A program made the position numbers and the translations under genes. From Escherichia coli (GTDB lineage: Bacteria; Pseudomonadota; Gammaproteobacteria; Enterobacterales; Enterobacteriaceae): a stretch of DNA of 41,651 nt. The notes under the pieces are model-generated. The model saw only the letters and a program-made list of their open reading frames with translations, did not search any database and was not told the origin of the DNA. This document shows, in pieces, positions 20,299 through 23,200 of this stretch; position 1 is the first letter of the stretch, and each line of letters opens with the position of its first letter. Where the stretch lies: assembly GCF_003334335.1 (NCBI RefSeq), contig NZ_QOWQ01000037.1, one strand, 5' to 3'.

Positions 20299-23200
20299 TT
20301 ACGCCTTCTCGATGTTGACTAAGAACGCTTTATATTCCGGCGTTTGCGAGTTTGCATCACCGACATTCGGCGTCAGAGTGTTAGCGATATAACCTTTACG
20401 CGCGACACCCTCAAAGCCCCAGTGGATTGGAATACCCACCGTTTCAACCTGCTGACCATTTACATTCAGCGGTTTCAGACGACGCGTTACCACAGCCACC
20501 GCGCGGATAAAGCCACGCTTGCTGGAGACAGTGACACGATCGCCATTATTAATGCCTTTCGCCGCCGCCAGCGTTTCGCTGATTTCCACAAACTGTTCCG
20601 GCTGAGCAATTGCGTTGAGCAATGCGTGCTTGGTCCAGGTGTGGAAGTGCTCGGTCAGACGATAGGTCGTACCCACATACGGGAACTGCTCTTTTTTACC
20701 CATCCGCAGCGCGTCTTGTTCATACAGACGAACAACCGGGTTAGACACCACGTTCGGATGCAGCGGGTTAGTGCCCAGCGGCGTTTCAATCGGCTCGTAG
20801 TGTTCCGGGAACGGACCTTCCGCCATTTTGTTGATGGCAAACAGGCGTCCCATCCCTTCCGGCTGCATGATAAACGGCCCGGTTGGCGTACCCGGTGCGG
20901 CATTGCCGAAGTCAGGAATATCGTTACCCGTCCACTTGCTGCCGTTCCACTGGATCAGCATCCGTTTCGGATCCCACGGTTTACCGTTGATATCCGCCGA
21001 AGCACGGTTGTACAGCACGCGACGGTTGAGCGGCCACGCCCAGGCCCATCCCAGCGTATTCCCCAGACCGGACGGGTCGGAGTTATCGCGGTTAGCCATC
21101 TGGTTGCCCTGCTCTGTCCAGCTACCGGTGTAGATCCAGCAAGAAGATGCGGTTGTACCGTCATCACGCAGATGCGCAAAGCTACTCAGCAACTGACCTT
21201 TCTTCGCAATAAGCACGCCATTAGCGTCATAGAGATCTTCCAGCGCGTAGCCGTTGTTCTCTTTAGCCACTTCGTCAGATTGCGGTTCGTGCGGCTGCTT
21301 GTAGTTCCAGCTCATCTTCATCAGCGGTTCTACGCCTTTACCACCTTCGGACTGGTACAGCTCGCGCAGATGATGGTAGATACCCGCCAGAATTTCACCG
21401 TCGTTACGCGCTTCGCCCGGCGCGTCCTGACCTTTCCAGTGCCACTGCAACCAGCGACCGGAGTTAGCGATAGAACCATCTTCTTCAGCAAAGCAGGTCG
21501 AAGGCAGACGGAATACTTCAGTCTGAATAGACGCCGGATCGACATCGTTCGACTCACCGTGGTTCTGCCAGAAGGTAGAGGTTTCAGTCACCAGCGGATC
21601 GATAACCACCATGTACTTCAGCTTGCTCAGGCAGCTCACCACTTTGTTTTTGTCCGGGAAGGACGCAACCGGGTTAAAGCCCTGGCAGAAATAACCGGTG
21701 ACTTTGCCTTCATCCATCATGTTGAAATACTTGATGACGTCGTAGGTCTGGTCCCACTTCGGCAGCCAGTCATAGCCCCAGTTGTTCTCTTTCTGCGCGG
21801 CATCGCCATAGAAAGATTTCATCAGGCTAACGAAGAACTTCGGATAGTTGCTCCAGTAGTTCACCTGATCAGCCAGCGTCGCTTTCGGCGTGTTCGCTTC
21901 CAGATACGACTGCAAATCAACCTGTTTTTCTGACGGCAGCGTCAGATAACCTGGCAGGCTGGTAGAGAGCAGGCCTAAGTCAGTCAAGCCCTGAATGTTG
22001 GAGTGACCACGCAATGCGTTCACGCCGCCACCGGCCATACCCATGTTACCGAGCAGCAACTGGATCATCGCCATAGTACGGATGTTCTGCGCACCCACAG
22101 TGTGCTGCGTCCAGCCCAGCGCGTACAGGAAGGTGGTTGTGCGATCCGGTGCGCTGGTGGAGGCCAGCACTTCACACACTTTCAGGAAGTCGGCTTTTGG
22201 CGTACCGCAGATGTTTTCAACGACGTCCGGCGTGTAGCGGGAAACGTGCTCTTTCAGCAGGTTCCACACACAGCGCGGATGAGTCAGTGTTTCATCGCGT
22301 TTCGCATAGCCGTTTTCATCGAACTGATAGTTCCAGGACGATTTATCGTATTGACGTTTTTCAGCGTCGTAGCCGCTGAACAGACCGTCTTCGAAAGCAA
22401 AATCATCACGCACCAGCAGGCTGGCGTTGGTGTAATGCTTAACGTATTCGGCGTTGATTTTGTTGTTTTCGATCAGGTAGCGCAAAACGCCAGACAGGAA
22501 CGTAATGTCCGTACCGGAACGAATAGGCGCGTAAATATCCGCCACAGAAGCGGTACGCGTAAAACGGGGATCGACAACGATCAAGGTTGCGTCGTTGTTG
22601 TTTTTCGCTTCCATCGCCCAGCGGAAACCGACGGGATGCGCTTCAGCAGCGTTACCGCCCATCACCATCACGACGTTAGCGTTTTTGATATCCACCCAGT
22701 GGTTGGTCATCGCACCGCGACCAAATGTTGGAGCAAGACTTGCTACCGTTGGTCCGTGTCAGACGCGCGCCTGGTTGTCTACCGCCAGCATCCCGAGGGA
22801 GCGGGCAAATTTCTGGGTCAGCATCCCGGTTTCGTTGCTGGCACCGGAGGCACACAGCATACCGGTAGAAAGCCAACGGTTTACCGTTACGCCCTGCTCG
22901 TTCTTTTCAATAAAGTTAGCGTCACGGTCAGCTTTCATCAGCTTCGCAATACGGGAGAATGCTTCTTCCCAGCTAATGCGCTGCCATTTGTCAGAACCTG
23001 GCGCACGATATTCCGGGTAGCGCAGACGGTTTTCACTGTTGACGTAATCCAGCAAACCGGCCCCTTTCGGGCACAGCGCACCACGGCTTACCGGATGATC
23101 CGGGTCACCTTCAATGTGATAAATCGCTTCTCTGGCGTTTTTTGCGCCATCACCCAGGCTATACATCAATAGCCCGCAACCTACGGAACAGTATGTGCAG

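Follow-up and report, generated by a model that had tools for sequence, protein, structure and literature searches.

The selenocysteine (Sec) system of E. coli comprises selA, selB, selC and selD. The SECIS of fdhF is the experimentally dissected model of the bacterial element, and the 11-nt spacing between UGA and hairpin is functionally important. A bacterial SECIS is defined functionally by binding SelB and by being needed for Sec insertion at the UGA upstream of it, and both properties are known from the literature for the formate dehydrogenase (FDH) genes of E. coli. These genes carry the best characterised bacterial SECIS elements (PMC13188914), and the SelB/SECIS mechanism of this established system is the subject of reviews (PMC13188914, PMC10778597). 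For fdnGHI, an opal UGA that encodes selenocysteine was described by Berg et al. 1991, as that work is entered in the reference list of PMC13188914. A consensus model quoted in the same review places the bacterial SECIS directly downstream of an in-frame UGA and inside the ORF. It has an apical loop of 3-9 nt on an upper stem of 4-16 bp, with a G in loop position 1 or 2 that is usually followed by G or U, a distance of 16-37 nt from UGA to apical loop, and a minimum free energy (MFE) of -7.5 kcal/mol or lower. The element described here is the K-12 fdnG SECIS itself, found in another E. coli strain. In comparison with the K-12 system (Berg et al. 1991; 1KQF), the 311 residues of the encoded protein that were compared are identical and the UGA occupies the same position.

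The window, by which we mean the whole stretch of 41,651 nucleotides that was analysed, is E. coli chromosome. Several complete E. coli chromosomes contain a 24-kb stretch of it (positions 10000-34000) with 100% identity. The RefSeq annotation of one of the matching genomes, E. coli FORC_081, gives the order ddpXABCDF, osmC, bdm, sra, maeA, adhP and yddM, followed by fdnI-fdnH-fdnG on the minus strand and, past fdnG, by yddG, yddL, an LRR pseudogene, narU and narZ-narH(Y)-narW-narI(V). K-12 and the window agree in the fdnGHI operon and in the genes around it (yddG, yddM, adhP, narU), and no difference between them was found. Next to fdnG lie its operon partners, fdnH for the Fe-S subunit and fdnI for cytochrome b, as judged from RefSeq on the 100%-identical DNA and from the ORFs, and this adjacency is one of the marks by which membership of FdnG was assessed. 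The genes and the parts of fdnG that concern us are as follows:

18756..19409, minus strand: fdnI, formate dehydrogenase-N gamma subunit (cytochrome b); from RefSeq on identical DNA
19402..20286, minus strand: fdnH, formate dehydrogenase-N beta subunit, directly downstream of fdnG in the operon; from RefSeq on identical DNA and a 294-aa ORF
20299..23346, minus strand: fdnG CDS, formate dehydrogenase-N alpha subunit, 1015 codons and a terminal TAA, with codon 196 a UGA that is read through; from translation, 1KQF_A, TIGR01553 and RefSeq
22759..22761, minus strand: UGA codon 196, the selenocysteine codon, aligned with X196 of 1KQF_A and with the Sec codons of fdoG and fdhF
23248..23346, minus strand: Tat (twin-arginine) signal region, MDVSRRQFFKICAGG...QALA, codons 1-33, of approximate extent; from the motif in the translation

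Translation of the frame at 20299..23346(-) finds a single internal stop, the TGA of codon 196 at 22761..22759, and a terminal TAA. Read as mRNA from the minus strand, the surroundings of the internal stop are GCG CGC GUC UGA CAC GGA CCA ACG GUA GCA AGU CUU GCU CCA, continuing with ACA UUU GGU CGC GGU GCG AUG. The initial annotation had drawn attention to an in-frame TGA at 22759..22761 on the minus strand, lying between ORFs of 195 and 803 aa, and both the translation and the ORF list bear this out: the mechanical list contains a 195-aa ORF (22759..23346) and an 803-aa ORF (20299..22710) in the same frame of the minus strand. Its further statement that the TGA alone separates the two is correct for the frame, which is open throughout, but not for the ORFs as called, since the listed 803-aa ORF begins only at Met213, whose ATG is preceded by 16 sense codons following the TGA. 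The mis-splitting of the gene that it expected of automated callers applies in the same divided way. Naive ORF callers, including the supplied track, do split it, but PGAP does not: RefSeq annotates 20299..23346(-), on identical DNA, as one fdnG CDS for formate dehydrogenase-N subunit alpha.

Taken at face value, the mechanical ORF list would describe two separate adjacent genes, encoding proteins of 195 and 803 aa, that share a frame by chance. We regard this arrangement as vanishingly improbable, given how the two pieces relate to known FdnG. The N-terminal 195 aa match positions 1-194 of TIGR01553 (NCBIfam, formate dehydrogenase-N subunit alpha) with 279.5 bits, and the C-terminal 819 aa on their own reach 1319.7 bits over positions 196-1009 (cut-off 814.2), so that the sole profile position missing between the halves is the UGA. 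A PDB search, in which C was substituted at position 196 of the query, found residues 1-311 to be 100% identical to 1KQF_A (formate dehydrogenase, nitrate-inducible, major subunit), whose non-standard residue X is position 196. Since both ORFs map to consecutive parts of one profile and one solved chain, they belong to one gene. The 16 codons that lead from the TGA to the ATG of Met213 are open, in the same frame and conserved, and they form part of the same domain. The claim that read-through yields a 1015-aa formate dehydrogenase alpha subunit is therefore upheld by the identity with 1KQF_A, by the match of both halves to TIGR01553 and by the single CDS in RefSeq.

A frame interrupted in this way might also be a pseudogene, in which a nonsense mutation peculiar to the strain allows only the 195-aa fragment to be made; the naive list, with its 195-aa and 803-aa split, is what such a lesion would look like. 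Several observations make a nonsense mutation extremely improbable. The 59-nt element that includes the TGA is at least 99% identical in 5426/5426 complete E. coli genomes; the median number of sites in a genome is two, fdnG and fdoG. The same TGA occurs in the paralogue fdoG, and also at the homologous position in fdhF. The 819 codons downstream are fully open, and it is these codons that reach 1319.7 bits with the FdnG model. Finally, full-length, selenium-containing FdnG has been published for E. coli (1KQF), and this crystal structure of the complete protein has its non-standard residue at 196.

A selenocysteine codon in one gene, as opposed to a lesion or a gene boundary, is also what the position of the UGA within the protein suggests. 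When the read-through translations were aligned with MAFFT, the U residues of FdnG, K-12 FdoG and FdhF fell in one column, within ARV-U-HGP, in agreement with the initial annotation, which had placed U at the position expected for selenocysteine. U196-H197 aligns with X196-H197 of 1KQF_A, with U140-H141 of FdhF, and with X-H of the Desulfovibrio FdhA chains, which are entered as 'formate dehydrogenase, alpha subunit, selenocysteine-containing' and have X in the same column of the PDB search. The pair U196-H197 also has the form of a molybdenum ligand, Sec or Cys followed by His, that served as a test of FdnG membership. On the strength of these alignments, the UGA is at the active-site Sec position of FdnG. 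At the other end of the 195-aa segment, the N-terminus of the translation bears S-R-R-Q-F-F-K, a twin-arginine motif of the form S-R-R-x-F-F-K, and the region that contains it is presumably the Tat signal of the fdnG product, an assignment made from established knowledge of FdnG.

Immediately 3' of the UGA on the mRNA, the sequence contains the parts of a bacterial SECIS:

22706..22764, minus strand: match to Rfam RF01989 (SECIS_3), 84.3 bits, spanning the UGA, the lower stem and the apical hairpin
22748..22758, minus strand: 11-nt spacer CACGGACCAAC from the UGA to the apical hairpin, read from the sequence; also the 5' arm of a weaker lower stem
22730..22747, minus strand: apical SECIS hairpin GG-U-AGCAA-GUC-UUGCU-CC; from the MFE fold, the SECIS_3 consensus structure and covariation
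22749..22758 with 22716..22724, minus strand: lower stem, in the SECIS_3 register

The SECIS_3 match covers the model at full length (positions 1-59), its score lies above the gathering threshold of 63 (E=1.1e-20), and it is the only gathering-level Rfam match in the 41.6-kb window. The apical hairpin is 18 nt long, with 7 pairs, a bulged U at 22745 and the loop G-U-C at 22739..22737; in model numbering it runs G18 G19 [U20 bulged] A21 G22 C23 A24 A25 / G26 U27 C28 / U29 U30 G31 C32 U33 C34 C35. It is common to the MFE fold and the SECIS_3 consensus structure. The hairpin noticed in the initial annotation, GG-U-AGCAA-GUC-UUGCU-CC with a bulged U and a G-containing loop, is thus present at 22747..22730, where it starts 11 nt after the UGA and is recovered by folding as the MFE structure. 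The likeness to the fdhF SECIS that was also proposed is true of its architecture, but not of its score with the fdhF-type model: SECIS_2 (RF01988) gives the window element 28.8 bits against a gathering threshold of 70. The element is therefore a SECIS of the FdnG/FdoG type and not a member of the fdhF-type family.

The fdnG element agrees with the consensus model quoted in PMC13188914 on all four counts. It lies within the fdnG ORF, 11 nt past the UGA; its 7-bp stem, interrupted by a single bulged U, carries a 3-nt loop (GUC); the first two loop positions are G26-U27, which are invariant in the 66 distinct sequences among the matches listed (see below); and the distance from UGA to loop is 19 nt (model positions 7-25), with an MFE of -12.7 kcal/mol for the 43 nt that follow the UGA. 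On its own, the apical hairpin has an MFE of -6.2 kcal/mol in a 22-nt fragment and of -4.5 as a bare 18-mer. It is presumably the element to which SelB binds.

Folding energy alone is uninformative on whether such a hairpin exceeds chance. The z-scores against dinucleotide shuffles were unexceptional, at -0.77 for 59 nt, -2.11 for 43 nt and -1.93 for the apical 22 nt, and synonymous recodings equalled or exceeded the native stability in 30-76% of cases over 45 nt and in 13-32% over the apical 18 nt. That many recodings do as well in energy would suit a reading in which read-through of the UGA, or Sec insertion, is independent of the hairpin and the stem arises only incidentally from the conserved peptide HGPTVASLAPTFGRG; conservation of this peptide is high and by itself fixes two of every three nucleotides. 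The covariance-model score and the comparison across species tell the two apart, and by both of these measures the hairpin is more than chance.

For the comparison across species, the DNA pattern GTNTGACAYGGNCCNACNGTNGC was scanned over 100,044 species genomes and found at least 120 loci, of which 119, among the matches listed, have the FdnG context DNQARV-U-HGPTVA. One Streptomyces locus among the matches listed was a chance match without that context and was left out. The TGA is kept in 113/113 homologues collected among the matches listed, a count to be read with the fact that the search pattern itself demanded TGA. The matches listed contain 66 distinct 59-mers, which were aligned without gaps and come from Enterobacterales, Pseudomonas, Burkholderiales, Xanthomonadales, Rhizobiales, Desulfuromonadales, Terriglobia and Actinomycetota MAGs.

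Among these 66 distinct sequences from the matches listed, the apical helix is 99.4% paired, and all of its pairs are kept in at least 63. Pair 21:33 is GC in 52, AU in 8 and GU in 6, and pair 24:30 is AU in 46, CG in 18 and GC in 2, with no unpaired cell at either pair in the 66 distinct sequences among the matches listed. As a control, sliding the 3' partners by 1-3 columns lowered pairing to 30-63%, and in 500/500 column shuffles both the pairing and the covariation score fell below those observed. Each covarying pair connects two third-codon positions, those of Val+5 and Ala+9 in one case and of Ala+6 and Leu+8 in the other, so that the compensatory changes are synonymous and the protein cannot account for them. 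Double changes of this kind are not expected if the stem is a by-product of the peptide, and neither is the extent to which the pairing is preserved: exhaustive enumeration of synonymous recodings of TVASLAP shows that only 216/36,864 (0.59%) keep the 7 pairs together with G26 and U27, or 0.46% when weighted by fdnG codon usage, yet at least 63/66 distinct sequences among the matches listed keep all pairs.

Codon choice is fixed, or nearly so, at exactly those synonymous sites on which the hairpin depends. ACG encodes Thr+4 in 112/113 homologues among the matches listed, and Ser+7 is AGT in 73/73 among the matches listed, compared with the six codons used for the Ser 13 codons upstream of the UGA. 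In the homologues among the matches listed, Val+5 is GTG or GTA only and Ala+9 GCC or GCT only. The paralogue fdoG adds evidence from within the genome. In K-12, fdoG (formate dehydrogenase-O) resembles fdnG in having an identical 59-nt SECIS_3 match, also of 84.3 bits, and Sec at codon 196; it differs in being a paralogue at another locus, with 75% DNA and 77% protein identity overall. Where fdnG and fdoG have identical residues, the codons are identical in 61% of cases, whereas the longest run of identical codons, 23 codons at 195-217, falls exactly over the UGA and the SECIS. With these frozen sites and this codon-for-codon identity set against it, a stem that is only a by-product of the peptide is very improbable, and it has been rejected along with the pseudogene and the two adjacent genes. 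The comparative data show that the fdnG hairpin is under selection at the RNA level. The designation of the hairpin as a SECIS stands accordingly, with a score above the curated Rfam threshold and a structure kept by compensatory synonymous changes.

Comparison with fdhF shows which features are shared more widely and which belong to the FdnG/FdoG type. The fdhF gene has the same UGA-CAC-GG context, an 11-nt spacer (CACGGCCCAUC in fdhF) and the flanking peptide ARV-U-HGP, and its hairpin shares the GG...CC stem base, the bulged U after GG and G-U in the apical loop. Spacer and hairpin of fdhF read CACGGCCCAUC followed by GGUUGCAGGUCUGCACC, and the gene has a SECIS_2 match of 87.1 bits at the place equivalent to the fdnG element. 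The two hairpins differ in size: that of fdhF has 17 nt and a GGUC tetraloop, whereas that of fdnG has 18 nt, one more A-U pair and a GUC triloop, which becomes an AGUCU pentaloop if the extra A-U pair opens.

The lower stem is weaker than the apical hairpin, and we do not claim it as demonstrated. In the Rfam register it is 86% paired in the alignment of the 66 distinct sequences among the matches listed, with no compensatory change, and pairs 8:48 (A.C) and 12:44 (A.G) are unformed in the E. coli sequence. The MFE fold of the E. coli sequence forms a lower stem in a register shifted by one relative to that of Rfam. This weakness is consistent with work on the minimal SECIS by Liu and colleagues in 1998, in which only the upper stem-loop, at the right distance from the UGA, was reportedly required.

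Genes of the machinery that decodes a selenocysteine UGA are present in the host at the species level. With K-12 queries, selA-selB were found in 5426/5426 complete E. coli genomes and selC (tRNA-Sec, anticodon UCA) in 5425/5426, so that selA, selB and selC, by which the capacity for Sec decoding was judged, occur in the genome of the species. Within the window itself, no tRNA genes were found, and no sel genes in the RefSeq annotation. We are close to certain that the TGA of fdnG is a selenocysteine recoding site, with the UGA at codon 196, an 11-nt spacer, a SECIS of the FdnG/FdoG type and SelB-mediated insertion of Sec196. No evidence contradicts this explanation, and nothing in the fdnG element departs from the known system.

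At this site, a ribosome arriving at the fdnG UGA would encounter SelB, with GTP and Sec-tRNA(Sec), anchored on the apical hairpin by the winged-helix domains at its C-terminus. At the A site, the Sec-tRNA(Sec) that SelB delivers, whose anticodon is UCA, would compete with release factor 2. Once Sec196 had been inserted, translation would go on to produce the 1015-aa Tat-exported molybdopterin subunit, in which Sec196 would be a ligand of the molybdenum centre of formate dehydrogenase-N (FdnGHI). If selenium or the sel genes were lacking, translation would be expected to stop at codon 196.

Knowledge of Sec196 of fdnG and its SECIS goes back to 1991, Rfam includes them and present-day annotation pipelines handle them; the initial annotation was right to call them established biology for fdnG, where they are textbook material. 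As a discovery, the site does not matter. Its interest is in part practical: naive or mechanical ORF tracks split selenoprotein genes, and here the recoding site could be recognised from raw sequence by a first-stage reader, which makes the case a useful positive control. It is also a worked example of how compensatory synonymous changes reveal RNA structure in a coding region better than folding energy, which was uninformative here. A further, unlikely extension is that the constraint on the RNA exceeds the apical hairpin, with the block of codons 195-217 and the register-ambiguous lower stem forming an extended functional RNA; the identity of that block could instead reflect recent gene conversion between fdnG and fdoG. 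If an extended functional RNA does exist, it might tune ribosome pausing or the efficiency of selenocysteine insertion.

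Comparison of fdnG with its paralogue fdoG from E. coli K-12 (locus L003) revealed a run of 23 identical codons, the longest shared by the two genes, with the runner-up extending over 12 codons. The run comprises fdnG codons 195-217 and coincides exactly with the UGA codon and the SECIS hairpin, while the DNA identity of fdnG and fdoG is only 75% overall. Purifying selection at the RNA level could be the cause of this 23-codon block, and gene conversion between the paralogues is an alternative that could also account for it. The positions of the block and of the lower stem in Rfam's consensus structure for SECIS_3 (RF01989, the FdnG/FdoG-type bacterial SECIS) are as follows.

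22695..22763, minus strand: block of codons identical between fdnG (codons 195-217) and K-12 fdoG
22749..22758 with 22716..22724, minus strand: lower stem of SECIS_3 according to the Rfam consensus

In K-12, the fdoG locus and a second locus used for comparison (L004) also carry arrays of matches to the REP-derived Rfam family naRNA4, at 24320..24666 of L003 and 5912..6432 of L004. These arrays, which adjoin rhaD or fall between gltP and yjcO, lie outside the window and are unrelated to the fdnG SECIS. Among 5426 complete E. coli genomes, seven or eight of the matches to the SECIS region of fdnG were on plasmid-class records, and three matching places instead of two occurred in a few genomes; such matches could be misassigned replicons or extra copies of fdnG or fdoG.

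Elsewhere in the window, three regions were compared with those of other E. coli strains.

3607..4989, plus strand: dosC, intact ORF of 460 aa
24719..26363, plus strand: yddL/yddK/yddJ region, ORFs of 96, 318 and 111 aa
about 37795..41651: ISAs1-family transposase genes (ydcC and a frameshifted copy), yncO, ydcD and a truncated RHS-repeat core gene, by the annotation of a matching strain

The annotation of FORC_081, an otherwise nearly identical strain, treats dosC as a pseudogene interrupted by an internal stop; the window differs from FORC_081 at positions 3821 and 4158. Where other strains have identical DNA, PGAP treats the yddL/yddK/yddJ ORFs as two pseudogenes, one of a porin that is truncated and one of a leucine-rich-repeat protein that is frameshifted; another strain has an IS600 separating this region from narU. 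Hundreds of mismatches to the matching strain accumulate in the window beyond about 40678, which suggests a variable RHS/toxin-tip region.

The lower stem of the SECIS_3 consensus is badly formed in the E. coli-type sequence, with A.C at model positions 8:48 and A.G at 12:44, and the minimum free energy structure places this stem one nucleotide off the Rfam register. Compensatory changes for either register were absent among the 66 distinct sequences from the matches listed. Those matches include FdnG-type SECIS elements outside Pseudomonadota, in metagenome-assembled genomes of an Actinomycetota (L009) and a Terriglobia (L036) member and at L123, a locus from the genome scan listed without a taxon. 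Broken apical pairs are few among the 66 sequences and are confined to the likes of L009 and L123. In L123 the Thr+4 codon is ACC, not ACG, and the peptide reads LATS in place of LAPT. These differences suggest that the hairpin deviates slightly in such lineages.
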